In this document: piece by piece, positions 6,609 to 38,748 of the stretch
Numbering within the stretch: position 1 is the first letter of the stretch
How the letters are laid out: each line of letters starts with the position of its first letter
IMG/VR virus record: IMGVR_UViG_3300044653_000021
Location: 1 to 51,150 of that record
Source of the DNA: a virus
Lineage: Duplodnaviria; Caudoviricetes
DNA length: 51,150 nt
Reading direction: 5' to 3' (one strand)
Translations under genes and position numbers: made by a program
The notes under the pieces: model-generated
Databases searched by the model: none
The model's input: the letters and a program-made list of their open reading frames with translations, nothing else
What the model was told of the DNA's origin: nothing

Positions 6609-7562
6609 CTATGGTCCGTTTGAACCCCAAACACCAAGCCAATTATCAGGAACAGCCGTGAATCTTGACACAACAGATTCTTTAAGAGCCTTGGTATCAA
6701 AATCATCATCAAAGTCCGTTTTCGGCTTTTGGCGCCAAATAAACTTAAGATGATGATATTTCTTCTCACAAAGAGCAAACCATGCTCCGACAGACTGGAG
6801 ATAATTGCTAATCATGTAACCCAAATCTTCACCAAGAAGTGAGTTAATTTCGTTAGTTGCAGTCCCCGGTTTTCCCGGTGAACCAAGTAACTCACGAGCC
6901 AAGAATCTATTAGTAAAATGAATAAGAATAGATTTTGGGAAGTAAGTAACTGGCAAACCTTGTCCATCTACCATACCCTGAAATTGGTTAGTCATTAACT
7001 GAATTCCAGCAAAAGACAAATCAATATCAGTAGCAGGTCGATTAGGATAAGTACCCGGTGCTGAAATAATAGTACTAATACCGGGCGTGTATGAAGTAGC
7101 AGTAGGACCACCAAGTAAGGGATGTTGATTATTAAACAAGGTCACACCGTCAATACTCTTGACGGTGGAGAAACCAAGATTAATAATATTCCAAGGCACT
7201 AACTCTTCCGTAAATTGTTGCGAGCGAGCTAATGCTTTCGGAACCTGCTTAATAACCCCATACTGATCATCATCATGCAACTCAAATGACGAACGTGCAG
7301 CCATTCCATAAGTTAAGGGGATACTACGAATAGTACCACCCTGAATTAACCTTGTATAAAACAAAGGTGTATTCTCAGGCTTCAATGGCATAGGACCAGT
7401 TCCAGCAAATTCTAACTCATCCTTGTACATTGAAGTAATTGTTTCAACATTAAAGACAGCAGGATATTGAAGTTCTCTTTGATACATTTCATTCCATTGT
7501 ACAAAGATCTTTCTTTGTCCTGGTGCCATTAATTGAGCATACTGGCCCCGTACCATACTCAT
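6609..7562 (-). CDS. major capsid protein (HK97 fold, Mu gpT-like family)
   Basis: 317 aa; LMAPG.RKIF N-terminus, ELHDDDQYG, DGVTLFNNQHP and C-terminal W.GVWGS.G motifs; position after scaffold and decoration genes. Confidence 0.85.
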   Translation of the reverse strand: MSMVRGQYAQLMAPGQRKIFVQWNEMYQRELQYPAVFNVETITSMYKDELEFAGTGPMPLKPENTPLFYTRLIQGGTIRSIPLTYGMAARSSFELHDDDQYGVIKQVPKALARSQQFTEELVPWNIINLGFSTVKSIDGVTLFNNQHPLLGGPTATSYTPGISTIISAPGTYPNRPATDIDLSFAGIQLMTNQFQGMVDGQGLPVTYFPKSILIHFTNRFLARELLGSPGKPGTATNEINSLLGEDLGYMISNYLQSVGAWFALCEKKYHHLKFIWRQKPKTDFDDDFDTKALKESVVSRFTAVPDNWLGVWGSNGP

Positions 7563-9879: not shown

Positions 9880-10184
9880 TAGTTTTTAGCTCCTTCCTTA
9901 ACAATCTTTTCTAATCTATCTTTAAGACTTAACAAATCCTTTACCATAAAAATCTTCCCACGAATAACATCCGAGATATCACGTCCTTGTGAATTAACAA
10001 AATTAAAAGTTAACTCATTATTTAATTGAGTTAAGATGTTATTGTAATAATTGTCCAGTAGGCCCTGCTCCGGCTGCTTTAGGTGCAGGAGTACCTCCTG
10101 TTTGCGTTCCATTATTTTGCTGAGTTCCGGGTTGATTACCTTGTCCACCTTGTTCTGCTGATCCTTGAACGTTTGGTTGTCCAT
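9879..10184 (-). CDS. small head-module protein overlapping the portal 3' end
   Basis: own AAGGAG RBS inside the portal gene; IRGKI..VKDLL motif typical of the small gene after portals. Confidence 0.6.
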   Translation of the reverse strand: MDNQTFKDQQNKVDKVINPELSKIMERKQEVLLHLKQPEQGLLDNYYNNILTQLNNELTFNFVNSQGRDISDVIRGKIFMVKDLLSLKDRLEKIVKEGAKN

Positions 10185-12006
10185 TACTCTGGCTCCTTAG
10201 TTTATTTAAAATCTCTACCTCTGGTTGCATACGAGATATATCATCATAGTTAAAGGCACGAAGTAACTTACCCATAACATATGCTTGTGCACTTATGGAA
10301 CCCATAATATACTCTTTTAAAGGTTCTGGCACAGACGGGTTTAATACACCTTGTAATAACTGTCCTATAGCTCCGAAATGCCTATTCATTACTTGCGTAA
10401 ATAGCATTCCAGTTTGCTTTTCGATTTCTTTATTAATGCTAGCTGTCGCTGCCTTAATAGGTAATTCTAAACGACCTGACTTGATATTCTCCATTGCTCT
10501 CTGGAGAATTTCTTTTTGTTTTCCAAGATACTTAAGTCGCTCGTCCCCGACTCCAAAATATGCATACTGTCTAACAGACTTCTGTCCTACATTAAGATGC
10601 ATATATCGAAAGTCTGTGACATTGATATTAATTCTTCTGTTACCTGCCTGCATGATAGAAAAGGTGCCCATGCTGTTATAATTACCTTTTTTATCTACTG
10701 TACCACTTCCCATACCTTCTCCACCGGGAATATCTGTTCCGAATCTAGCCTTTGCAAGTGCTATTGTAAGCTGCTCCTCCGCAACACTACTTGGATAGTT
10801 TGCTCCGAGTTGGACGATATCAACATCATTCTTATCAAACGGCAACACAGCCATAGGAAATAAACTAATACCAGCATCAATCCTAGCATTACGACCGCCA
10901 AGGAGAACTGAAGTATTAGCGAGAGTACGGTTATCAACACGCTGATTATGTCCAGTGGATACCTCTTCTTGATACATCTCTCCCATTTCTGCAAAGCCGT
11001 ATCCTATAAGCCCATCTTCACTATAACCAAGCCTGCAATACTCAAAAGGTTCATCATTTTTAGGGTAGAAATTAAAGAAAGCTGACATTCGCTTTCCCTG
11101 TCCAGCGTTATCTCCGTGACCCAGATGGATAGTATAAAGGATGCTGAATAAAACATCGTCATGCCAATATTTAAACCAGCATTCATAAAATGTCCATGTT
11201 GCAATACTCTTCCCACTTGGCTGCGGTGGATCAATATTCTGCAACCTTAACTTCTCTTCATCCTCCGTGCTAATGCTTTCATTAGTTGGAGAGTTTTTGA
11301 TATCTTCCCATGCTTCCTTATCAAACGCCCCGAAGAATACTCGTTCCTCACATTTGTTTTTAGTGAGTGTGTATTTATGATACTTGAAATTTGCCGACTC
11401 CCATGTACTAGCTCCGGGTGTTGCTGCCCAATCTTCATAAGCTAGTTTCTCAGGTCTTGGACCATCATATATAATCTCTTTCTCATACATCGGCTTACTG
11501 TTAGAATCTATTCCTGTTACCACCGCTTCTGTTTCTGTTACCCAGGGTAACTTAATTAGAACTGATCCTAACCCAGCATTATCATGTGCGGCTCGGCTTT
11601 CTACACGATATAAATCTAACTCTTTCTTACTAAGCCCCATTAAATTAAGGAACTCTTCCAGTGCAACACGTTGCTTATCTCCCTGTTCTGCTTCCTCAAA
11701 ATCCCCCACAAGACCAGCAGAAAATAGGGGAAGAATCTCATATATACTCCCAAGCTGGGTAGCTTTAAGTACATCGACATTTTCCCCTATTAACTGGATT
11801 ATTACATTGCTGGCGTTAGGCCAAGGGAAGTTACGTGTTTCTTCTCTTGGCTTACCTTTAATCAACCTACGCCATTTAGGAACCAAGTTTTCATGCAGGT
11901 TTGCATAGGAGTTCTTCAAGGACGTGAGATTGTCATAGACATATTTGTCTAAGGCTTTATTCTCGTCCTCTCCGAAATCTACTTTTACTGGTTTCAATAA
12001 TGACAT
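10039..12006 (-). CDS. portal protein
   Basis: 655 aa; FPWPNASN motif, YECW, GYGFAEM...QEEV...HNQRVDN segments; downstream of terminase. Confidence 0.85.
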   Translation of the reverse strand: MSLLKPVKVDFGEDENKALDKYVYDNLTSLKNSYANLHENLVPKWRRLIKGKPREETRNFPWPNASNVIIQLIGENVDVLKATQLGSIYEILPLFSAGLVGDFEEAEQGDKQRVALEEFLNLMGLSKKELDLYRVESRAAHDNAGLGSVLIKLPWVTETEAVVTGIDSNSKPMYEKEIIYDGPRPEKLAYEDWAATPGASTWESANFKYHKYTLTKNKCEERVFFGAFDKEAWEDIKNSPTNESISTEDEEKLRLQNIDPPQPSGKSIATWTFYECWFKYWHDDVLFSILYTIHLGHGDNAGQGKRMSAFFNFYPKNDEPFEYCRLGYSEDGLIGYGFAEMGEMYQEEVSTGHNQRVDNRTLANTSVLLGGRNARIDAGISLFPMAVLPFDKNDVDIVQLGANYPSSVAEEQLTIALAKARFGTDIPGGEGMGSGTVDKKGNYNSMGTFSIMQAGNRRININVTDFRYMHLNVGQKSVRQYAYFGVGDERLKYLGKQKEILQRAMENIKSGRLELPIKAATASINKEIEKQTGMLFTQVMNRHFGAIGQLLQGVLNPSVPEPLKEYIMGSISAQAYVMGKLLRAFNYDDISRMQPEVEILNKLRSQSNGQPNVQGSAEQGGQGNQPGTQQNNGTQTGGTPAPKAAGAGPTGQLLQ

Positions 12007-13068: not shown

Positions 13069-14958
13069 CTAATACCCCGTGACAGAATTCCTCCCAGCAT
13101 GTAACATCATAGCTTGTTTCTGCTGTTGTAATATAAAACCATCCATCTCTGGTTCACTCATTCTACTTAAATCAAGATTCTGCAACCCATGTCCTAAAAT
13201 ATCGAGGATATCCCTAGTTGCACAATGAGGGTATTCATTATATTCTTCCATAAACTTTTGCGTAAAGCCTGTCTGGTCGTTCTGACAAACCCATATCTGC
13301 CCCCGACGAAAAAATGGCTCTGCGTCCTCAATACGATCACTTTTCGCATTGTCACTCCGGTTGTCTTTAAATTCATTTATTTGATGGAAGTACCACTTTC
13401 CTAATGAACTTCTAAGTTTATCCTCAATCTCAAATGCCGTCTTACACCATGTTTGTCCTGCACTTATTTCGACCCATATCTCTCTAATCCGCCATTTCTC
13501 CGCCATAACATACGCATGGTGCATAATATCTTCCCGACTACAGGTATCAGCACGTCCATCAAGTATGTAAAGATTAAAAGGATCACGATTGATTCCAAGA
13601 AGCATAAGAGCATGATTCGCACGGCCTGTTTCTCCTTTATGATTCGGATCAATCATAAGCATTTTAGTGAGATTAGAAGTAGCTATATCTTTAGGAAGAA
13701 CACCATTATTCATCTCGTGGCGGACTGTCATATGGCGCTTGCTTACCATATCTTCGTGTGGGACAATCTGGTAGCCTTGTGTACCGAAAGAACCACTTTC
13801 GGACATAGGGATATTAATATTTATTTGTTTCCAACCGGGAGCAGCTTTGCTTATAGTGGTGGAAATTAATACATAATGTCGAAGCCACTCAGATTTAAAG
13901 GTATTTCCACCGGGAGGTATTGGTCGATTACGAAACTGACATGAATAAAAATATTCCCCAAGACGTTGACGCATTCTTAATAACTTAACCATCGACCATT
14001 CTTCAGGGAATATTGGTATTCCGGGTGGATGTAGTTCACAGCAACCACCTTCAGCATCATGTGTATGGAATTTGAAATAAGGAAGTTCTTTCTTAATCTT
14101 CCAATTAAGATCATGGAATGACCAACGATTTCCATTTACTACTTCATCACATTCCATGTCCGGATTAGTTGGATCAGAATCAAAAGCGCCTACTGCAAGT
14201 TGCATCCATTCCCATGTACTAAGAGCAACAAGTTCAGACTTAAGAGCATCTTTTCCATAGAGATCATCAAATACAAGGCGGCGATAATGTTTAGACTGAA
14301 GAGCAGCATCGACTCCCGTAAATTCATATGTCCCTTCACCTTGATTAGCATCTCCTTTTGTATAATCACGGAGATGTGTCATAGTGTCTGCTGTCCACTG
14401 ACACGATGTATTAGGAAGAATCTCAGGAAATAATTGTTTAAAGAAATTATTATTCTTATACTCTGACGATATCTTCTTCCCTACCTTCCATGCATTAGTA
14501 ATAGTCTCCATTGCTATCAATGTACGTGTATTTTGATCGTGAGCACGATGCATCCAAGCAATCCATTCATCACCATAACCAAGTGCCCTCATCATTCGCT
14601 CATCACGATCATTAAACGGCAAGGCCCACCAAATAGGCATACCGACACTACCAATGGTGGTTTTAAAATGATCTCTAGGTACTTCAAATACTTCTTTCAA
14701 AGACCAACTCTGAAAGGCATCACAATATTGACGATGAAAAGAATTAGAAAGCCTATGTTTACGAAGGATGAATTTAATGAAATAGAAGTTATCACCAAGG
14801 GCATTTAAACGATGGGAAAGGTTTTGGACATATGGGGAGAGTTTTGTACTAGGTGGGATTATATTCCAACGATAAGCATAGGACGTTCTATTGACTTCTT
14901 GTGTCAAGTCAACTTGCGGACTACTAATATCAGAGATATCTGTGAGGATTGTTGACAT
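13069..14958 (-). CDS. terL: terminase large subunit
   Basis: Walker A-like VPRDHFKTT, Walker B LVFDDL, NGNRWSFHDL motif, YSCQFRNRP, nuclease MIDPN, K.DRI and DILD motifs. Confidence 0.9.
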   Translation of the reverse strand: MSTILTDISDISSPQVDLTQEVNRTSYAYRWNIIPPSTKLSPYVQNLSHRLNALGDNFYFIKFILRKHRLSNSFHRQYCDAFQSWSLKEVFEVPRDHFKTTIGSVGMPIWWALPFNDRDERMMRALGYGDEWIAWMHRAHDQNTRTLIAMETITNAWKVGKKISSEYKNNNFFKQLFPEILPNTSCQWTADTMTHLRDYTKGDANQGEGTYEFTGVDAALQSKHYRRLVFDDLYGKDALKSELVALSTWEWMQLAVGAFDSDPTNPDMECDEVVNGNRWSFHDLNWKIKKELPYFKFHTHDAEGGCCELHPPGIPIFPEEWSMVKLLRMRQRLGEYFYSCQFRNRPIPPGGNTFKSEWLRHYVLISTTISKAAPGWKQININIPMSESGSFGTQGYQIVPHEDMVSKRHMTVRHEMNNGVLPKDIATSNLTKMLMIDPNHKGETGRANHALMLLGINRDPFNLYILDGRADTCSREDIMHHAYVMAEKWRIREIWVEISAGQTWCKTAFEIEDKLRSSLGKWYFHQINEFKDNRSDNAKSDRIEDAEPFFRRGQIWVCQNDQTGFTQKFMEEYNEYPHCATRDILDILGHGLQNLDLSRMSEPEMDGFILQQQKQAMMLHAGRNSVTGY

Positions 14959-22958: not shown

Positions 22959-22983
22959 CAAAAGATTGGAGTGTGTGTTCTTT

Positions 22984-23526
22984 ATGCCCTACCGACGACG
23001 CCCATCATGGCTAGATTCTTCTCCTACTACTACAAAAGTCTCTATCCACTGGTCTAGTAAATCCAGTGCCTTTGCTATTAAATTCTCCGATACAAAGAAC
23101 TGGAATCAGATGCAGATACTTATTCAGTATCTTAAGAATATTCCCTACGGAGAACGAGACTATGATCCAGAAACTAAAGTTTGGTTCCTAATCGAGAAAT
23201 ATATCGAACCATTTAAGGAAATGGTTTCATTAATGAACCAATTCTTTTCTCTCGATTTCACGCCAAAACCGACAGAGCAAACAAACCAAGCCGTGTTTAT
23301 TCCTGTTGATGTATATCTCGATAAATTCAAAAATTTAACCGGACATGATATTAAAGGTATTGAATATCCCGTAGCCAGAAAACAATATCTACGATGGTTA
23401 ATGATTAACCACCCGGACAAGAAACCGGAGAATCATATTCTTGTCCGTGATGTAAATGAATGTTGGTCGGCTCTTGAATTAAATTATTTTAAAACGAAAA
23501 AGGAGACGGAGTATGCTAGTACTTAA
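22984..23526 (+). CDS. J-domain (HPD) co-chaperone fused to an N-terminal HARP-like domain
   Basis: ARKQYLRWLMIN-HPD-KKP...VRDVNECWSAL fits J-domain helices II-III; RDYDPETKVW resembles the HARP motif. Confidence 0.65.
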   Translation: MPYRRRPSWLDSSPTTTKVSIHWSSKSSAFAIKFSDTKNWNQMQILIQYLKNIPYGERDYDPETKVWFLIEKYIEPFKEMVSLMNQFFSLDFTPKPTEQTNQAVFIPVDVYLDKFKNLTGHDIKGIEYPVARKQYLRWLMINHPDKKPENHILVRDVNECWSALELNYFKTKKETEYAST

Positions 23527-24604: not shown

Positions 24605-24753
24605 ATCCAGTAGATGAAATCAACGACAATATCCCCTGTCCCGAATGTGGGCAAGATCCATGTATTTGTGATATAATCGAAGTTGATTATTTTATCGATG
24701 ATGAAGATTTCTACACAGACGACGAAGAATCCGAGGATGAAATTATCCCATGA
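24601..24753 (+). CDS. small, very acidic Cys-motif protein (50 aa)
   Basis: read by eye: CPECGQDPCIC followed by a D/E-rich tail; ATGA-coupled to both neighbours. Confidence 0.65.
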   Translation: MNPVDEINDNIPCPECGQDPCICDIIEVDYFIDDEDFYTDDEESEDEIIP

Positions 24754-25883
24754 CAGAATCCTATACACCAGAACAAACAACCAACACTTTGGCTCTTGTC
24801 CGTAAACTAATCGGTCTTGGCATCCAAGCCAAGCCTATTGGTGTAGAACAAGGGCCAGTAGTAACGGCATATTTCTTTGAACTCGACCAAGGGGAAAGTC
24901 TTAGTAAATTTCTCAAACGTAGTGAGGACTTTGCCCTTTCCTTGGGAGTGGACAAAGTAATTACACAACGAATAAAGGACAAAGTAGTAATCTTTATCCC
25001 AAATAAAGAACGAAAAATTGTAGATTTTAAGGATGTTCTCTATTGGTACATGAACGATGAAAAAGTAAAAGAAATGGAAATCCCTGTACCACTAGGAGTA
25101 GACTTTCATGGTAATAAGAGTGCTTTTGATCTTGCAGCTTGTCCTCATGTACTTCTTACTGGTAGTACGGGCTCCGGAAAGAGTGTCTATGAAGCAGCTA
25201 TATTATCGAGTCTTGGGTACTACTTTAATCCTAGTGAACTTAATATGTATTTGGTTGACACTAAAAAATTAGATTTACCTTTATTTAAGACCCTGCCACA
25301 TGTTTTAGATGTGGCAGATGACTTGGACAAATTTCACAATATGATTAACACAATCATGTTAGAAATTCGTCGTCGGAATAGTATGTTACAAAATGCACAG
25401 GTACGGAATATTCAATCTTATCATAAAATGATGGGTGGGAAAGAAAGCCTTCCATATATTATTCTTATGTTAGATGAATTCGGTTATCTTATTAAATTAG
25501 ACGAAGAAGCTCGTAAGGAGGATAAAGAGAAATATGAAGATATTCCTAGGGTTATGTCCAGAATCCAGACTGCCGCGGGCATTGCCAGAGCAGCAGGAGT
25601 TCATATTATCGCCTGTACTCAAAGAGCAGATGTTAAAGTTATTAACGGAACCATAAAAACAAACTTGCCTTGCCGCATCGCACTTAGATGTACAAGTAGG
25701 GTTGATTCTCAAACTATTCTTGACACCGGAGGAGCTGAGAATCTTCTTGGAAAAGGAGATATGTTAGTAAAATATCCAGAAAACGACATATTAGTAAGAT
25801 ATCATGGTCCTTACGTAGACATGGCAGATATACAACAACTAACAATGAATTATGATATGATTAAGGGGAGTATGAGGAGTTAA
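24750..25883 (+). CDS. ftsK: FtsK/SpoIIIE motor-domain protein (alpha and beta domains only)
   Basis: GPVVT.Y alpha-domain motif, PHVLLTGSTGSGKS, LMLDEF, ARAAGVHIIACTQR, GAENLLGKGDML. Confidence 0.9.
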   Translation: MTESYTPEQTTNTLALVRKLIGLGIQAKPIGVEQGPVVTAYFFELDQGESLSKFLKRSEDFALSLGVDKVITQRIKDKVVIFIPNKERKIVDFKDVLYWYMNDEKVKEMEIPVPLGVDFHGNKSAFDLAACPHVLLTGSTGSGKSVYEAAILSSLGYYFNPSELNMYLVDTKKLDLPLFKTLPHVLDVADDLDKFHNMINTIMLEIRRRNSMLQNAQVRNIQSYHKMMGGKESLPYIILMLDEFGYLIKLDEEARKEDKEKYEDIPRVMSRIQTAAGIARAAGVHIIACTQRADVKVINGTIKTNLPCRIALRCTSRVDSQTILDTGGAENLLGKGDMLVKYPENDILVRYHGPYVDMADIQQLTMNYDMIKGSMRS

Positions 25884-32101: not shown

Positions 32102-32366
32102 TGAGATGTATAGTGTTACAAAAGCTAAAAATTCAGATTATGCAACACCAAAAGAGGCACTACGTAATTTTAAGATGTTCGGTGCTTTTGGTGTTCTTGT
32201 TAGAATATCAGATAAAATATCAAGACTTAGAACAGTATTAGAAGATAAACGTGAATTTGCTGTAAAAGAAACTGCTTTTGATACCGTGACAGATATGGCA
32301 GTATATAGTGTAATTCTTAGAATTATAATGGAAGAAGAAGCTAAAGAAAATGAGTTTAATAAATAA
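32058..32366 (+). CDS. nucleotide-modification-associated domain 1 (DUF1599-like) protein
   Basis: KAKNSDY....LRNF...GVLVRISDKISRL...E...DT..D.AVY motif. Confidence 0.75.
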   Translation: MTQEQYLKRFQEIIDEMYSVTKAKNSDYATPKEALRNFKMFGAFGVLVRISDKISRLRTVLEDKREFAVKETAFDTVTDMAVYSVILRIIMEEEAKENEFNK

Positions 32367-33477
32367 CTTCGGTCCCGAAACAAGTCCTATTTGGGTCATA
32401 CTTGATTCTCCTTATGACGGAGATTCGGATATTGACCCAGTTACACAAATTGATAAATTAGGAATAATATTGAGTGGTGGTTATGGATATAATTTTAAAA
32501 AGATTTGGAAGATGGGTGGTCTTTCTCTTAGTGATGTTCACATTCGATCTAATCGCCCTTGTATCGGAGCATCGTATGTTAAAGAGAATGTACTTAGCAA
32601 TCTTCTTGGTGATATTGACAAATATCATCCTACTTTTATTGTTCCACTTTCTGATGAAGTTTTGAATTATTTAATCCCACACACAACACAAGCCAAAGAA
32701 AAGAATTCATCCCTTGGAAAGTGGGCTGGTTCCTTATTAACATCTAAATATATTTCATATCCACATTATATAATAGGGAGCCAGCCACCAGATTGGGTTA
32801 CGAAGAATTGGGCCTATAATGAAATCCAAGCCTTCATAGATTTTGGACATGTCCGTGAGGAATTTGAATACTGGACAAAATATGGAACTCTTAATCCACT
32901 ACCTAGACGTAATCTTATTACCCAACCATCTTATTCCGATCTTGTTGGTTATTTGCATGACTGTCTTAATGTTAGTATGGTGTCAGTCGATATTGAGACT
33001 ATCCGACCTAAGAAGGGTAGTACTTATTATAATATTAATTGCGGGTATCCTTACACTATTGCTCTTGCTAAGTCTCCCAAAGATGCAATAAGTTTCTCTT
33101 TCTGGGATTATACACCAGAACAATGTGTACAGATTTGGAGAATGTTAAATGAGATTCTTAGTAAAGTGCCTCAGATTGGGCAAAACTATTTTCTCTTTGA
33201 TAGTCATTATCTTGAAGCATTGGGATTTAGAATTTGTTTATCTTCGTGTTTCGACACCCTTATACGACACCATATATTATGGCCATCCCTTAAGCACGCA
33301 CTTCATTTTCAGACAAGACAATACACAAGAGAACCGTACTACAAAGATGAGGGACGAAACTTCAATGTAAAACGTAAAACACAGTTCATGCTATACAATG
33401 CCAAAGATGCAGCCGTTACTTTTGAAATTTATGAAGAACAAGAAAAAGAGTTTAAAGAACGTCCACATATTAGGTAA
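32350..33477 (+). CDS. DNA polymerase A N-terminal subunit: degenerate uracil-DNA-glycosylase-like domain plus 3'-5' exonuclease
   Basis: GP..SPIWVILDSP UDG-like start; ExoI VSVDIET, ExoII QNYFLFD, ExoIII YNAKDA. Confidence 0.8.
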   Translation: MSLINNFGPETSPIWVILDSPYDGDSDIDPVTQIDKLGIILSGGYGYNFKKIWKMGGLSLSDVHIRSNRPCIGASYVKENVLSNLLGDIDKYHPTFIVPLSDEVLNYLIPHTTQAKEKNSSLGKWAGSLLTSKYISYPHYIIGSQPPDWVTKNWAYNEIQAFIDFGHVREEFEYWTKYGTLNPLPRRNLITQPSYSDLVGYLHDCLNVSMVSVDIETIRPKKGSTYYNINCGYPYTIALAKSPKDAISFSFWDYTPEQCVQIWRMLNEILSKVPQIGQNYFLFDSHYLEALGFRICLSSCFDTLIRHHILWPSLKHALHFQTRQYTREPYYKDEGRNFNVKRKTQFMLYNAKDAAVTFEIYEEQEKEFKERPHIR

Positions 33478-33643
33478 AATATTACAACATCAAGCACAAG
33501 GTCCGGATACTTATATAGAAGATTACATCCAACCACCCGGCATACGCGCAACATGTCACGGTCATTTAGAACCACTTGGTTTTAAAAGTATAGAAGATTT
33601 ACAAAAACACTGGCGGGAAGAACATGAAGGGAGACAGAAATGA
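33398..33643 (+). CDS. hypothetical protein
   Basis: 81 aa ORF; start uncertain. Confidence 0.35.
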   Translation: MPKMQPLLLKFMKNKKKSLKNVHILGKILQHQAQGPDTYIEDYIQPPGIRATCHGHLEPLGFKSIEDLQKHWREEHEGRQK

Positions 33644-34095
33644 TTGTTGGTATAGTTGGAAGTGAAGAAGTTAAATTTACTGAACTAGGTAAACAAAATG
33701 CCCTTCATTATATTAGACAAATAGTAGCTGATCCAGAAGTTACTGAAGTTGTCAGTGGTGGTTGTCATCTTGGCGGTATAGATATATGGGCAGAGGAAAT
33801 AGCCAAAGAATATAACAAAAAGATGACAGTATTTTTACCAACAGGACATTATTGGTCTACAGGATTTAAGCCACGAAATGAAAAAATTGCAAATAAAAGT
33901 GATATTGTATATTGTATCACTGTAGATAAATTACCTGAAAATTATAATGGTATGAAATTTGATTTATGTTATCATTGTGAAAGAAATTCAGTTATATCTT
34001 ATCCAGATCATGTAAAATCTGGTGGTTGCTGGACGATGTATTATGCTATAGATCATGGTAAAAAAGGTAAATTAATTGTAGTACATAATTATTAA
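33640..34095 (+). CDS. SLOG-superfamily (YspA/DprA-like) nucleotide-binding protein
   Basis: IVGIVGS, VVSGG..GGID.WAE, RNEKIA..SD and SGG.WT..YA motifs. Confidence 0.7.
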   Translation: MIVGIVGSEEVKFTELGKQNALHYIRQIVADPEVTEVVSGGCHLGGIDIWAEEIAKEYNKKMTVFLPTGHYWSTGFKPRNEKIANKSDIVYCITVDKLPENYNGMKFDLCYHCERNSVISYPDHVKSGGCWTMYYAIDHGKKGKLIVVHNY

Positions 34096-34104
34096 AGGAG
34101 TTAT

Positions 34105-34392
34105 ATGGCTAAGGACATTCTCGGAAACGAACTTAAAGTAGGTGATTACGTACATTTTACTTTACCATCCAATCAAGTACTAGCTAAAATAACTGAATTA
34201 TCAGAAGGCGGCTTACTTGGTGCTAGTGCTATTGTACAGAACAAGGCACAAGGTATAGTACTACCCGGTACAGTTACATTTACAATAGAAGCTAACGCAC
34301 AGTTTGACCCGAATAACAAAGTTATTATGGTAAACAAAGCCGTCATTCCACCTGATTCGCCGTTATTGACGAAGGAAGGGAAGCCAAATTGA
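34105..34392 (+). CDS. hypothetical protein (SH3/KOW-like start)
   Basis: KDILGNELKVGDYV motif; AAGGAG RBS. Confidence 0.6.
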   Translation: MAKDILGNELKVGDYVHFTLPSNQVLAKITELSEGGLLGASAIVQNKAQGIVLPGTVTFTIEANAQFDPNNKVIMVNKAVIPPDSPLLTKEGKPN

Positions 34393-34393
34393 T

Positions 34394-34510
34394 ATGTCCG
34401 GCGTTAGAAAACCTATAGAAGAACGTTTTGCCGTTAAGTATAAAATAGAAGATAAAGGATATTTAACTCCATTAAGTGAGTATAAAATTGCAAAACTTAA
34501 TAACAAGTAA
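34394..34510 (+). pseudogene. possible remnant of an HNH endonuclease N-terminus (38 aa)
   Basis: MSGVRKPIEERFAVKYKIEDKGYLTP resembles phage HNH N-termini but stops before any nuclease motif. Confidence 0.35.
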
Positions 34511-36014
34511 TTATGAACATAGATTAGCATTTCATTTCCATAATATAGATCGGAGAGGTCTACTTATCCATCCTGACCTAAAAGAACAAGCTCGTCTTAA
34601 ATGTGAAGAAGAACTAACAAACAACTGTGCTTATCTTAGTAACTTCTGGAATACAGAAGTCTATATTGGCAGTGAAAATGCTCCAGAAAATCCAACACGT
34701 CCGACAATGAATCTGAATGCAAATTCAGGGAACAATACTGTTCTGATAAATCTTACTCGTCTTGGATATAACGTCCCTAAGATTCGTAAGAAAAATATCG
34801 AAACAGACTCCTATGAACTAGAAGAAAGTGCGGGAGAGTTAGCATTAGTAAAATTATTAGCCGACCCATCCCGATGGCCCTCTCCTTCTGCTGGAGAGGG
34901 CATTAAAAAGTTATTGGAAACGAGAGAAGTAATCACTTTTAGGAATAGGTATATCAATGCGCGACTTTATCATAACATATATTTTGCCAATCATAATGTG
35001 GCAGCTACGGTTACTGGGCGTAGAGGAAGTAAAAAGACTATCTTTGGATTCGGAGGAAATGACCAGAATTTCCCGTCCAGAGGAAGATTATCTGATATAT
35101 GGAAAGAATGTGTTGTGGTACGTCCGGGTAAACTCTTCTTCTTTGTTGACCAAGTAAGTGCCGAGGATTGGCCAGTACAAGCATTGTCGGAGAATCACAC
35201 AGCTTTAGCACAAATGATTGCTGGTGTTAATAGACATTATATTTTTGCTAGTCAGATTTTTGGTTTATCCGTAGATGAGTTAAAAAAGAAACGTTCTAAT
35301 AAAGACGGTTCTTACACAAAAGAACAACAAGACGAAGCAGAGATGCAGTATTATATGGGAAAGAAGGCCCGACATAGCAACAATTATGGTATGCAACCAA
35401 CTACTTTCTCCGAAGCACTTGCAAAAGAAGGCGGTTTTACTGTTCCAATAGAAGCTTGTAAAAACATTCTTAGTATCGTAGACAGGATCGACCCAAATGT
35501 TAAACGAATCTTTCATAAGTATATCCAAGATAAACTTGCCAACTCCGCACATATGCTTCAAACACCATTGGGACGGGAAAGAGCCTTCCTTGGATTACGT
35601 AGTGGTGAAAAGAATTACTCGATTCTTAATGAAGCATATTCTTACGTCCCCCAAAGTACAGTCGGTGATAATACGGGACTTGCAGTTTGCGAACTCGAAG
35701 CATGTCACAATTATATACTCCAAGATGGACATGACAGTTTATGTCAAGAAATACCTGATAACGAACAGACACTCAGAACGGTATTTAAAAACACTGCAAA
35801 TGCGTTTAAGAGAAGGATTACGTTTCATAACGGAGTAGAGATAGAGATTCCGATAGAAGGTCAAATTGGGTTTAATTGGAAAGATAAGATTAAGTTAGAA
35901 GAGTATAGCGAAGATTGTTTAATGAATGCATATAAGGAACTAAAGGAGAAATATGGAAATAGCAGAACTACAACAAGTAGCATTCAACAATGCCAAGAAA
36001 TTGGGATGGTGTGA
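34476..36014 (+). CDS. polA: family A DNA polymerase, polymerase-domain subunit
   Basis: ATVTGR.S...N.QNFP, motif A FVDQVSAED, motif B GKKARHSNNYGM, TPLGRER, PQSTVGD, motif C GHDSL; start codon uncertain. Confidence 0.9.
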   Translation: MSIKLQNLITSNYEHRLAFHFHNIDRRGLLIHPDLKEQARLKCEEELTNNCAYLSNFWNTEVYIGSENAPENPTRPTMNLNANSGNNTVLINLTRLGYNVPKIRKKNIETDSYELEESAGELALVKLLADPSRWPSPSAGEGIKKLLETREVITFRNRYINARLYHNIYFANHNVAATVTGRRGSKKTIFGFGGNDQNFPSRGRLSDIWKECVVVRPGKLFFFVDQVSAEDWPVQALSENHTALAQMIAGVNRHYIFASQIFGLSVDELKKKRSNKDGSYTKEQQDEAEMQYYMGKKARHSNNYGMQPTTFSEALAKEGGFTVPIEACKNILSIVDRIDPNVKRIFHKYIQDKLANSAHMLQTPLGRERAFLGLRSGEKNYSILNEAYSYVPQSTVGDNTGLAVCELEACHNYILQDGHDSLCQEIPDNEQTLRTVFKNTANAFKRRITFHNGVEIEIPIEGQIGFNWKDKIKLEEYSEDCLMNAYKELKEKYGNSRTTTSSIQQCQEIGMV

Positions 36015-36289: not shown

Positions 36290-37516
36290 GTGCCCCGTAT
36301 ACTTAAGAAACCTTGGTTAGATGCGTTTAGTGATTATTGTCAAGGAATGGAAACGCCACGGGAGTATATTAATTGGGTAGGGATATCAGTTCTATCATCA
36401 GCATTGAAACGACGATGTTACATCTGGTATAGAGGAATAAAGTTTTATCCTAATCAATATATAATCCTAGTCGGCCCACCCGGTATTGGAAAAGGGGAGA
36501 GTATAAATGCTGCGACGAAAATAGCGAATGAAGTAAAAGCAATTAATTATATTAAGGACTGGGTTACTCCACAGGAAATTATAGAAGAGTTAAGCGCGGG
36601 CTTTCAGCATATCAATTTAAAGCCCGGACAGGTGATAACAACTAATGTTGTACAAGATCACACATGTTGTATCATGGCTCCGGAATTGGCAGTATTTTTA
36701 CAGCAGTATGATAATTTGCACAGCCTTATGTGCGCTTGGTGGGATCAAAATAAGTTCGATTACAAGACTAAGAACAAAGGAAAACATGTTATTGAGGATA
36801 TGTCAGTTTCTCTTCTTGGTGGCTGCGTCCCTGACTACGTTCGGAGTCTTAGTAAAGATCGACTCGCTCCCATTACTGGTGGCTTTACTGCTCGTACTAT
36901 ATTTGTTTATGCTACTGAAAAGTTTCAACTTATAGATAATAGTTTTGGTGCTCCAAACGGTAGTAAAACAAAAATCCATGATGACTTAGTAAATGATTTA
37001 CGACATATCACTACTCTAACGGGCGAATTAAGGATAAGCAAAGATGCCGAAACACTCTGGCAACAAGTCTACCAAGAACACAACAAACGGGGAGCTATTG
37101 ATTCTGACGCTAGTGCGAACTTTAAAAGCAGAATCTCCAGTCATATTATCAAAACGGCAGTTACAATCAGTATTTCTGACTCCGATAACCTCGTCATCAC
37201 AAGAGATCACCTTGACACAGCTATACGACTTATTGAAGGGATCAGAGATAAAGTTGATATTGTGTTTAGATCCATCGGTGAAAGTCCTCTTGCCGTGACG
37301 ATGGATAAGGTGATTAAGTTGGTGGATATGAAGGGAATAGTACTTTATAAGGAGTTGTTAAAATATGTAATGAGAGACGCTACACAGGATCAGTTAAATG
37401 GTATATTACAAGTTCTCGTAAAAACCGGAATGATTGTGGAAAAGATTAATGTAAATAGCCAAGTAGAATATTGGAGTACAAATTTTATCAAAACACAAGG
37501 AGCAGGGAATCCATGA
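36290..37516 (+). CDS. DUF3987/YfjI-like P-loop ATPase (putative replicative helicase)
   Basis: YPNQYIILVGPPGIGKG, PEL..FL, GGFTARTIFVY motifs and a winged-helix-like C-terminus. Confidence 0.7.
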   Translation: MPRILKKPWLDAFSDYCQGMETPREYINWVGISVLSSALKRRCYIWYRGIKFYPNQYIILVGPPGIGKGESINAATKIANEVKAINYIKDWVTPQEIIEELSAGFQHINLKPGQVITTNVVQDHTCCIMAPELAVFLQQYDNLHSLMCAWWDQNKFDYKTKNKGKHVIEDMSVSLLGGCVPDYVRSLSKDRLAPITGGFTARTIFVYATEKFQLIDNSFGAPNGSKTKIHDDLVNDLRHITTLTGELRISKDAETLWQQVYQEHNKRGAIDSDASANFKSRISSHIIKTAVTISISDSDNLVITRDHLDTAIRLIEGIRDKVDIVFRSIGESPLAVTMDKVIKLVDMKGIVLYKELLKYVMRDATQDQLNGILQVLVKTGMIVEKINVNSQVEYWSTNFIKTQGAGNP

Positions 37517-38106
37517 GTAAGAAAGTGAATATTGTTTTAGAAGAAATTGATCCACAATGGGCCAACATTAAGGGCCAATATCTTATTTCCCCCATCTACG
37601 GTGGCAGTGGACGTGTTCTAGTACAAGAAGATCCATACAAATCAAAGTATGAATGTTCCAAATGTCATGGAGTAGGCCACTTAGGAGAAGTTTGTAAATG
37701 GTGCCTTGGAACTAAATTTGAAAAGGGCAAAGAAGAAAATGGTTACTGTCGTGATTGCACCGTTGGCGCAGATAATAACGCGGCAGGAAAAACATTAGGT
37801 CATGTAGCATGTGACTTATGTCATGGTACAGGCGGTTCAATTGTAGTACCGGATGAAAATCAACGAAATACTACTACTGGAGATATTCTTGCTATAAGTA
37901 ATAGAGATATATTAGAAGTCAGGGTTGGTGATAAAGTAATGTTTACAAACTATTCAGGTAGTCCCTTTAAATTCATGGATATAGATCTTCGTATAATTAT
38001 AGAACGTGATTTATTAGGTAAAGTAAAACAACTTAAACATAACGTAGAAGGTCTTAATGAAGGGAATTTTGCTGATTTAGAAAATACTGGAGTACCGAGG
38101 GAATAA
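37513..38106 (+). CDS. groES: GroES/Cpn10 co-chaperonin with an inserted DnaJ-type zinc-finger domain
   Basis: GroES motifs RVLV, GSIVVP, TTGDILAI, VRVGDKVMF..YSG and IIERDLLG flank four CxxC(xGxG) repeats. Confidence 0.8.
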   Translation: MSKKVNIVLEEIDPQWANIKGQYLISPIYGGSGRVLVQEDPYKSKYECSKCHGVGHLGEVCKWCLGTKFEKGKEENGYCRDCTVGADNNAAGKTLGHVACDLCHGTGGSIVVPDENQRNTTTGDILAISNRDILEVRVGDKVMFTNYSGSPFKFMDIDLRIIIERDLLGKVKQLKHNVEGLNEGNFADLENTGVPRE

Positions 38107-38108
38107 TT

Positions 38109-38531
38109 ATGCCTATGAACCCAATAGAAGCACTAGCAGATTGTATCTTTCAATTTGAAGGCTATTTCCGTCCCGGTAGTTCTGTTGGTGGAGTAAAGGG
38201 AAGTACATCATGGAGGAATAGGAATCCGGGGAATCTTCGGCCAACATCAACAGCACAATTAGCAGATGAGAAAGGTTATAGAATATTTATTTCTCTTGCT
38301 GAAGGTTGGAATGCTTTGTTAAATGATATTCAGGCAAAAGTAATCTTCGGCACACATGGTATAACCCCGGCCAGTACTCTTACTGATTTCTTTAACATCT
38401 ACGCACCTGCATTGGACAAGAATGACCCAGAACAATACAGCCGTCAAGTTGCTCTTTGGCTTACGAAAATATATAATGCCCAAGTAATGCCAACGACGAC
38501 ATTGAAGGAAATTATGGAGTTGGGAAAATAA
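38109..38531 (+). CDS. lysozyme-like protein (candidate endolysin or virion muralytic protein)
   Basis: FEG...SWRNRNPGNLR...F....GW.AL...YAP..D.NDPEQY motif. Confidence 0.65.
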   Translation: MPMNPIEALADCIFQFEGYFRPGSSVGGVKGSTSWRNRNPGNLRPTSTAQLADEKGYRIFISLAEGWNALLNDIQAKVIFGTHGITPASTLTDFFNIYAPALDKNDPEQYSRQVALWLTKIYNAQVMPTTTLKEIMELGK

Positions 38532-38532
38532 C

Positions 38533-38748
38533 ATGCACAAACTATCTCCTAAACAATTAGAACAAGCATCTTTAGTGTCTAAAGGTCTAACAGATAAAGA
38601 AATAGCCAATATTATGCATCTATGCCTTGGAACAATAAAAAATAATAATAAATTAATGTATAGAAAAATGGATCTTAAAGCTGGTGATGGTAATAGAGTA
38701 AAACTGGCTAGATGGTACTGGGAAACATATGAAAAAGGCCCCAAATAA
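38533..38748 (+). CDS. LuxR-type HTH regulator (candidate late activator)
   Basis: LSPKQ....LV.KGLTDKEIA..M.L..GTIK.....MYRKM....RV.LA. Confidence 0.8.
   Translation: MHKLSPKQLEQASLVSKGLTDKEIANIMHLCLGTIKNNNKLMYRKMDLKAGDGNRVKLARWYWETYEKGPK

Follow-up and report, generated by a model that had tools for sequence, protein, structure and literature searches.

A phage protein of the GroES family with a cassette resembling the DnaJ cysteine-rich domain in its predicted GroEL-docking loop

Why a GroES-type gene of a virus should carry four CxxC motifs in the middle of its reading frame is the question raised by the IMG/VR record IMGVR_UViG_3300044653_000021. The window considered here is this whole record, a complete virus sequence of 51,150 bp (CheckV completeness 100%) with a G+C content of 37.6%. 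A first-pass annotation of the window had placed a GroES open reading frame (ORF) at 37513-38106, with the four motifs at about nt 37654-37833; these coordinates and motifs were found to be exact, the motifs spanning nt 37654-37833. It had also claimed that the insert splits a GroES pattern just before the hydrophobic tripeptide that docks onto GroEL. This was borne out by the Pfam Cpn10 match, by fold comparison, by profile-profile alignments and by orthologues devoid of the insert. The gene, termed here zinc-finger GroES, probably encodes a phage co-chaperonin of the GroES type that acts on the GroEL of its host and has a finger resembling the DnaJ cysteine-rich (CR) domain in its docking loop.

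The protein was confirmed as a member of the Cpn10/GroES family by both sequence and fold. The Pfam family Cpn10 (PF00166) was matched with an expectation value (E) of 2.8e-9 and 37.3 bits, above the cut-off of 21.1, over residues 106-171, which correspond to positions 20-93 of the 93-position model. All 22 aligned homologues (22/22) match the same family, and profile matches to solved GroES and Cpn20 chains of the PDB reached E values down to 1.6e-13. The AlphaFold2 (AF2) model computed with 22 sequences has a mean predicted local distance difference test score (pLDDT) of 73.8, with values of 90-94 in the barrel, 79-90 in the N-terminal strand and 59-86 in the cassette. Residues 110-117 are below 50, as expected of a flexible loop. 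Foldseek returned eight matches at E ≤ 0.001, every one to a Cpn10/GroES structure. When 48,161 chains were compared with VIA-align, human Hsp10 superimposed with a Z score of 10.2 and a root-mean-square deviation (r.m.s.d.) of 3.0 over 92 aligned residues, a GroES and a Cpn20 each gave a Z score of 9.7, and T4 gp31 (1G31) gave a Z score of 8.9 with an r.m.s.d. of 1.9 over 74 residues. The alignments to Hsp10 and GroES begin at model residues 14-24. Since the alignment to Hsp10 extends over model residues 14-173, both flanks of the insert build one and the same GroES barrel.

Two other origins for this layout were considered and rejected. Medium-chain alcohol dehydrogenases (ADH_N) have a four-cysteine structural zinc lobe inserted in a GroES-like barrel. 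The 197-residue protein differs from them in having neither a Rossmann domain nor an ADH_N Pfam match, and such medium-chain dehydrogenases/reductases superimpose more weakly, with Z scores of 4-6.5 as compared with 9-10 for Cpn10. A frameshift or an assembly chimera was also discarded, since 39 further homologues and independent contigs from soil have an unbroken ORF.

GroES sequence can be followed on both sides of the insert. Before it, the segment ISPI..GRVLVQED lines up with the opening strand of E. coli GroES and of short GroES proteins. On the other side, a 30-member family profile aligns with residues 23-96 of E. coli GroES (probability 92.4%), and the family motif GG-h-h-h-P falls on G23 G24 I25 V26 L27, reading G108-S-I110-V-V112-P in the window. 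Conservation was measured on 124 finger-bearing cluster representatives of at least 140 residues. All three positions of the tripeptide are I, L, V, M, F, A or T in 114/124, and the following proline (P113) is kept in 115/124; this proline and a RRPTTG-like stretch agree with canonical GroES. The roof hairpin of E. coli GroES faces a gap in the alignments and has no counterpart in the family protein. A complex of residues 28-175 with the GroEL apical domain (CH60_ECOLI 191-376) was predicted with scores of 0.02 and 0.01, the mark being 0.32; with no controls folded alongside, the result counts neither for nor against binding.

The insert is a cassette of 67 residues between the first GroES strand (..RVLVQED) and the Gly-Gly that precedes the tripeptide. 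Its cysteines form the CxxC pairs C48/C51 (CSKCHGVG), C61/C64 (CKWCLGTK), C79/C82 (CRDC) and C100/C103 (CDLCHGTG). The last motif ends at G107, and I110-V-V112 begins three residues later. The full CxxCxGxG sequence is found in motifs 1 and 4 of the window, whereas motif 2 has CxxCxG only and motif 3 CxxC only; in the wider family, motif 3 comes nearer to the consensus. The eight cysteines together with G53, G66 and G105 are invariant among the 22 aligned homologues, and each cysteine is kept in 110-124 of the 124 representatives, so that the pattern of four CxxC motifs is far beyond chance. The family consensus reads DR..V.ED.F.SGYEC..C.G.G...C..C.G...C..C...C..C.G.GG.I..P.....RPTTG, and the span from residue 40 to residue 108 varies from 50 to 126 residues across the family (median 66). 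Within the near clade, the mean pairwise identity is 0.52 in the cassette, 0.58 in the barrel, 0.58 in the C-terminal tail and 0.21 in the N-terminal extension; the regions other than this extension range from 0.52 to 0.68. The eight cysteines most likely bind two zinc ions.

Comparison of the cassette with the DnaJ CR domain was made at several levels. With hhalign, the 30-member family aligns with residues 132-204 of E. coli DnaJ with a probability of 92.5% (E 4.8e-7, 62 columns), all four cysteine pairs being in register with the CR domain. The cassette of the near clade alone gives a probability of 67% (E 5.2e-5). A profile search of the PDB returned the DnaJ CR domain (1EXK) at E 0.11. 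The Pfam family DnaJ_CXXCXGXG is matched below its threshold at E ≤ 1 by 19/22 homologues (best 7.3e-5), and the further families matched among the 22, BSD2_CRD (7), GRXCR1-2_C (5) and Anti-TRAP (4), are all families of DnaJ-like zinc fingers. No match to DnaJ (PF00226) or DnaJ_C was found in the 197-residue protein at E ≤ 10. Structure searches with the isolated cassette were less informative. Its model (residues 38-112) matched no PDB chain at E ≤ 0.001 with Foldseek; the top five of the nine rows returned were BSD2 and DnaJ zinc-finger chains, with non-significant E values of 0.77-3.2 that are too weak for use. Residues 40-108 found no usable match in the ESM Atlas. Judged by its sequence, the cassette is thus described as DnaJ-CR-like and not as a member of the Pfam family, because every family member tested scored below the Pfam cut-off. 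The term 'DnaJ-type' used at first is apt for the order and register of the motifs, as borne out by the hhalign probability of 92.5%, and calls for a qualification as regards Pfam membership and the full CxxCxGxG motif, which only motifs 1 and 4 display.

Zinc modules vary in number and place within the family. In L190:230-943 (record G001), P0008 and P0038, an extra N-terminal ribbon of the CxxC...CxxC type (for example CIQC..CILC) precedes the GroES part; no other part of the family varies as much as the N-terminal extension. Two distant members deviate elsewhere: P0096 (239 residues) has a second CxxC..CxxC insertion at the position of the roof hairpin, and P0073 (272 residues) has six CxxC motifs in an enlarged loop cassette. 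The barrel therefore tolerates zinc modules at more than one loop. In L169 and L170 (records G032 and G031; ORF 1414-2010), motifs 1 and 4 are kept and the middle motifs are not CxxC (CDC and C....C), so that the second zinc site of these proteins may be altered or lost.

The zinc-finger GroES belongs to the core genes of a single uncultured lineage of soil phages, with genomes of about 45-51 kb. This lineage has no close deposited relative, and 299 relatives of the capsid protein are present in IMG/VR. Scanning IMG/VR with one pattern confirmed 65 of 70 stretches, and a scan for the near clade added one, giving 66 loci; homologues of window genes are present at all of them. Two gene orders occur. 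In class A (28 loci: L001, L040-L066), which has the order of the window, the exonuclease and polymerase parts of a family-A DNA polymerase (PolA-exo, PolA-pol) are followed by a DUF3987 gene, the zinc-finger GroES and then convergent fibre genes. In class B (38 loci: L002-L039), the GroES gene directly precedes, on the same strand, the genes for the terminase large subunit (TerL), portal, scaffold and capsid protein. The order in L026 is a 128-residue ORF resembling the small terminase subunit (TerS), the GroES gene, TerL and portal, and the GroES gene has overlapping start and stop codons with both neighbours. The presence of this separate TerS-like ORF led to the rejection of the zinc-finger protein as a candidate small terminase.

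Genomes of the lineage were also collected independently of GroES, by an alignment scan with the capsid protein in which the best 80 of the 299 relatives were kept. Twelve records of at least 30 kb that had not been found with the zinc-finger pattern were searched with the family profile. A GroES match was obtained in 12/12, among them all seven (7/7) with a completeness of 90% or more. The match spans the full length in three records; it is weak and partial in a fourth, which is incomplete, and in the other eight it extends only from the docking loop onward. The eight latter proteins, one of which has 106 residues (L171), have no CxxC motif at all and read ...IVVQED.FKY(G/E)G-hhh-P....RRPTTG..., and their genes occupy the same position, after PolA-exo, PolA-pol and DUF3987. 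The alignment shows the cassette as one clean block flanked by ED.FK and Gly-Gly. Given these eight GroES proteins at the same position, the cassette is a clean natural presence/absence variant (indel). In a tree of the capsid protein (35 rows), the eight cassette-less phages form one clade (support 100/99), sister to the cassette-bearing class-A phages and within the class-A clade (100/99). A single change accounts for the distribution of the cassette on this tree; it would be a loss under midpoint rooting of this tree without outgroup.

Whether the cassette-less phages have a similar domain elsewhere was examined. A search of the eight genomes with the cassette profile, run without a positive control, found a free-standing cassette in 0/8. 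PF00684 was matched in 1/8 (G027), not by the same cassette; this search is insensitive, since it picked up the cassette in only 3/6 cassette-bearing genomes. The product concerned, encoded by L188:215-763 on the minus strand of record G027, is a separate protein of 182 residues with two N-terminal CxxCxG motifs (CPTCAGTG and CPKCQGG), which is not homologous to the cassette by the cassette profile.

A word-indexed search retrieved 39 other homologues at E ≤ 7.7e-52, of 174-265 residues and on contigs whose length reaches about 52 kb. Among 1.84 billion representatives, profile searching found 1728 matches at E ≤ 1e-3 (ordinary GroES included), 131 at E ≤ 1e-10 and 21 at E ≤ 1e-30. When the best 150 matches were inspected for CxxC motifs, 128 had at least three (exactly four in 103, five to seven in 16), four had two and 18 had none. 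Among cultured phages, the protein and the distant member P0142 had no tblastn match at E ≤ 1e-3 among 50,697 GenBank phage records, where TerL had four weak matches at E ≤ 1e-3 (best 27.5% identity) and the polymerase 17 weak matches. The whole architecture is covered by no PHROG. The pattern [EQR]DxF[RK][ST]G[YFN]EC hit six stretches in 185,579 cellular species genomes, none of which was confirmed; this is a partial test, the window clade (EDPYKSKYEC) lying outside the pattern.

The architecture is common in one uncultured phage lineage and apparently undescribed in print. The first-pass remark that no such protein had been described agrees with our literature searches, whose coverage excludes most subscription journals and which turned up no report of a zinc finger in a GroES/Cpn10. 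It needs a qualification, as some of the 39 homologues already bear the automatic name 'co-chaperonin GroES' in public metagenome annotation. Because the proteins are named plain 'GroES' in this way, the feature is invisible in databases. The main text of a survey of 1479 viral GroES sequences contains neither 'zinc' nor 'cysteine' (0 occurrences), and the supplementary alignments of this survey could show such sequences (PMC5649160).

The partner of the protein was sought in the phage genomes themselves. Cpn60 was found in none of the 22 genomes searched in the lineage (0/22), for 20 of which the completeness is 90% or more, and the positive control was found in 14/14 named genomes; the partner, if any, is therefore the GroEL of the host. 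A link between the DnaK and GroEL pathways through a phage J-domain gene had been proposed from the window. J-domain matches at E ≤ 0.01 are present in 16/22 genomes, six of them over the cut-off, and are distributed as 15/16 class-A and 1/6 class-B genomes. The cassette is found without a J-domain match in 5/6 class-B genomes, and sub-threshold J-domain matches occur in 5/8 cassette-less genomes. The proposed link gains no support from this co-occurrence, because the J-domain and the cassette do not track each other. The ORF of the window at 22966-23526 (+) has a C-terminus reading ..ARKQYLRWLMINHPDKKPEN.. with a J-domain-like HPD motif. Its Pfam DnaJ match, at 23377-23475, is weak (E 0.007, 12.7 bits for a cut-off of 27.8). 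As positional relatives in class A reach the cut-off, in 6/22 genomes, a J-protein is likely to be a second co-chaperone encoded in the lineage.

The gene is under purifying selection. Apart from two samples that may be its source, the stretch is present in soil-metagenome runs of three studies, with shares of 0.69, 0.53 and 0.30; no RNA run is among the listed runs that carry it. A diverged copy in one soil run has no indels in the body of the gene, and its N-terminal extension is replaced by another sequence. Third codon positions account for 33 of the 40 differences listed, and the 33 changed codons comprise 30 synonymous and three non-synonymous changes (D124Q, I125V and D140E).

From these data, the following functioning can be envisaged. 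The proximal (descending) arm of the mobile loop is replaced by a folded cassette of about 67 residues. By homology, the protein is expected to form a GroES-like ring and to dock onto host GroEL through I110-V-V112. A GroES-like heptamer would display seven fingers, presumably at the apical rim of GroEL since the finger replaces the descending arm of the loop. By analogy with DnaJ and with the small zinc-finger proteins BSD2 and ZnJ2, the reading that we tentatively prefer is that the finger is an extra holding surface for late proteins of the phage (capsid, portal, terminase). Strong conservation of its tip around the second zinc site in the near clade (GTK..KGKEENG.CRDCTVG) points to a specific binding surface remote from that used for docking. 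That the fingers would go as far as capturing the late proteins and passing them into the host GroEL cage upon closure of the lid, as a fused holdase and co-chaperonin, is a bolder idea that we find unlikely.

Several observations weigh against a DnaJ-like finger at work on a GroEL lid. The window protein scores 15.3 bits (E 0.024) with Pfam DnaJ_CXXCXGXG (PF00684), short of the cut-off of 32.7 bits, which is reached by 0/14 phage records tested. In the window clade, motif 2 stops at CxxCxG and motif 3 at CxxC, and the AF2 model of the cassette alone, computed with 14 rows, is of low confidence (pLDDT 59.9). Canonical GroES mobile loops are flexible, and a folded domain three residues from the tripeptide could impede docking. 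The cassette must be dispensable for the basic job of the protein, since a sister clade does without it, which makes the finger an add-on and not a requirement. Finally, the placement of the class-A gene beside replication genes offers no pointer to a capsid role.

A close rival account of the cassette, only slightly less likely than the holding surface, dispenses with client binding altogether. The finger would be a module of affinity, rigidity or spacing that pre-orders the loop and adds contacts to the GroEL apical domain, or that lifts the dome, so that the phage lid outcompetes host GroES or enlarges the cage for big proteins such as the portal (655 residues) and TerL (629 residues). With its end three residues before the tripeptide, the cassette must indeed lie against or beside the apical domain, and without a phage GroEL the lid must compete with host GroES. 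The linker ED.F(K/R)SGYEC before the first cysteine is highly conserved, which fits structural packing. Like gp31, in which longer loops make the cage larger (PMC6318259), the protein has no roof hairpin. However, the capsid protein has merely 317 residues and needs no larger cage, the conserved tip of the second zinc site suggests a specific surface remote from the docking site, and the cassette-less relatives manage with a normal loop.

It is improbable that the protein works independently of GroEL, as a ring acting directly, with TerL or portal, in the assembly of heads or the packaging of DNA, or as a nucleic-acid binder. Such a role would suit the 38/66 loci where the gene is directly upstream of TerL on the same strand, the overlap of the GroES stop with the TerL start in L026 and the weak PHROG matches of 2/10 distant members to head morphogenesis or decoration families. 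It is at odds with the GroEL-docking half of the loop, kept as in canonical GroES across the family, with the 28 loci, including the window, where the gene is among replication genes and far from TerL, and with the separate 128-residue TerS-like ORF just upstream in L026. Moreover, T4 gene 31, itself counted under 'head morphogenesis', acts through GroEL (PMC6318259). A thiol/redox switch or oxidoreductase borne by the lid, or a coupling of GroEL to host DnaK through the phage J-domain protein, is more improbable still. Oxidoreductase activity is reported for the DnaJ CR domain, which also aids the binding of substrates to DnaK, but ZnJ2, with the same type of motif, showed no such activity of its own (PMC5818400). 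A redox co-chaperone of GroEL, CnoX, exists (PMC13451151). A J-domain match in 15/16 class-A genomes, six over the cut-off, would be in keeping with a coupling to DnaK, but the cassette without a J-domain in 5/6 class-B genomes and the J-like matches in 5/8 cassette-less genomes are not. Disulfides are rarely needed by cytoplasmic phage proteins, which counts against a redox role.

Few proteins have been studied as thoroughly as GroES, in which mobile-loop disorder is held to govern affinity and timing in the GroEL cycle. The zinc-finger GroES resembles bacterial GroES/Cpn10 (PF00166; E. coli 1AON, Thermus Cpn10 1WNR, human Hsp10 4PJ1) in scoring above the family threshold, in its barrel and first strand, and in the distal half of the mobile loop with its glycine, hydrophobic tripeptide and proline. 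It differs in the proximal arm of the loop, which is the eight-cysteine cassette of about 67 residues, in the absence of a roof hairpin, in the conserved C-terminal tail of 26 residues, in the variable N-terminal extension and in being encoded by a phage. T4 gp31 and RB49 CocO are likewise phage-encoded lids of host GroEL, without roof hairpin and with an altered mobile loop (PMC6318259; PMC5649160). The former competes with GroES and is needed for the folding of the 56-kDa capsid protein; its mobile loop has 22 residues versus 16, and it has no roof (PMC6318259). Unlike that of the phage zinc-finger GroES, this loop is only lengthened and has neither a folded domain nor cysteines. The two proteins also differ in that gp31 is barely similar to GroES in sequence, whereas the zinc-finger protein is a clear Cpn10. 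The likeness to a phage-encoded, roofless lid with the GroES fold (Z 8.9 to 1G31) is one of kind and not of family membership.

The DnaJ CR domain (PF00684; E. coli DnaJ about 144-200, 1EXK) has four CxxC(xGxG) motifs in the same order and register, and it is also inserted into a β-hairpin of another domain, with its two ends adjacent. Its two zinc ions are bound in an interleaved topology, by motifs 1 and 4 and by motifs 2 and 3. The spacings between successive pairs in the hhalign alignment are 9/14/17 residues in the cassette and 13/18/10 in E. coli DnaJ. The cassette departs from DnaJ in falling below the Pfam cut-off, in the degenerate motifs 2 and 3 of the clade and in having GroES as its host domain, and the whole protein departs from class A DnaJ/Hsp40 by the lack of J-domain, G/F region and C-terminal domains. 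DnaJ-like CXXCXGXG domains are zinc-binding holding chaperones for unfolded clients, and plant BSD2 and algal ZnJ2 are small J-less domains of this type that bind zinc and hold or assemble specific clients (PMC5818400). BSD2 and ZnJ2 are free-standing chloroplast proteins, whereas the phage finger is built into the loop of a co-chaperonin.

What makes the locus worth pursuing is that a soil phage lineage keeps, under purifying selection, a folded module of the zinc-binding type three residues from a docking tripeptide. The cassette-bearing and cassette-less sister phages are a matched pair with which to ask how much structure a mobile loop tolerates, and whether a co-chaperonin can bear its own device for client recognition or for competition. 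We know of no chaperonin system that selects or delivers substrates through a holdase fused to its lid; were this the function of the finger, the cassette-less orthologues would be built-in controls. The zinc-finger GroES would represent a second phage solution, other than T4 gp31, to the retuning of the host chaperonin, and it is a candidate tool for directing GroEL to chosen clients.

The segments of the protein and the accompanying features are given in Table 1. In the C-terminal tail, L174, K175, N191 and G193 are invariant among the 22 aligned homologues.

Table 1. Positions in the window of the zinc-finger GroES gene, its segments and the large terminase gene
Feature	Position (nt)	Strand	Basis
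Zinc-finger GroES coding sequence, 197 residues	37513..38106, stop codon included	+	Read from sequence; codon changes in natural variant
Shine-Dalgarno-like AAGGAG, 10 nt 5' of ATG	37497..37502	+	Read from sequence
Variable N-terminal extension, residues 1-15	37513..37557	+	Mean pairwise identity 0.21; pLDDT <50; replaced in soil variant
N-terminal GroES segment, residues 16-40 (W..ISPIYGGSGRVLVQED), first Cpn10 barrel β-strand	37558..37632	+	Alignments; pLDDT 79-90
Zinc-finger cassette, residues 41-107, four CxxC pairs, DnaJ cysteine-rich-domain-like	37633..37833	+	Cysteine conservation; hhalign; cassette-less orthologues
Mobile loop, distal half, residues 108-123 (GG-S-IVV-PDENQRNTTTG)	37834..37881	+	Aligns with E. 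coli GroES loop
Presumed GroEL-docking tripeptide I110-V111-V112	37840-37848	+	Aligns with E. coli GroES I25 V26 L27
GroES β-barrel body, residues 124-171, without roof hairpin	37882..38025	+	Pfam Cpn10; pLDDT 90-94; VIA-align
Conserved C-terminal tail, residues 172-197 (VKQLK..G.NE..FA.LENTGVPR)	38026..38103	+	Mean pairwise identity 0.58; pLDDT ~41
TerL	13069-14958	-	Window

The zinc-finger GroES is the final gene of the plus-strand replication arm of the window, which encodes an FtsK-like ATPase, a PD-(D/E)XK nuclease, a split family-A polymerase and a DUF3987 primase/helicase. Its ATG overlaps the TGA of the primase/helicase gene (ATGA), and 2 nt separate its stop codon from the next gene. 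The minus strand carries the genes for TerL, the capsid protein (6609-7562) and a likely portal (10039-12006), together with a scaffold-like gene; the capsid protein, portal and TerL have 317, 655 and 629 residues, respectively. The gene directly 3' of the GroES gene, 38109-38531 (+), encodes 140 residues without Pfam match, and its weak PHROG matches are to a domain that occurs inside tape-measure and endolysin proteins. It is followed at 38533-38748 by a gene for a 71-residue protein with a LuxR/GerE-type helix-turn-helix. The exonuclease and polymerase ORFs of the split family-A DNA polymerase are at 32350-33477 and 34476-36014 (+), with small ORFs (33640-34392) in between, and the split is kept in all 28 class-A loci. 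In the early/replication arm, a soluble ATPase of the FtsK/SpoIIIE type is encoded at 24750-25883 (+; Pfam E 1.6e-29), with homologues at 4/66 loci within the flanks fetched.

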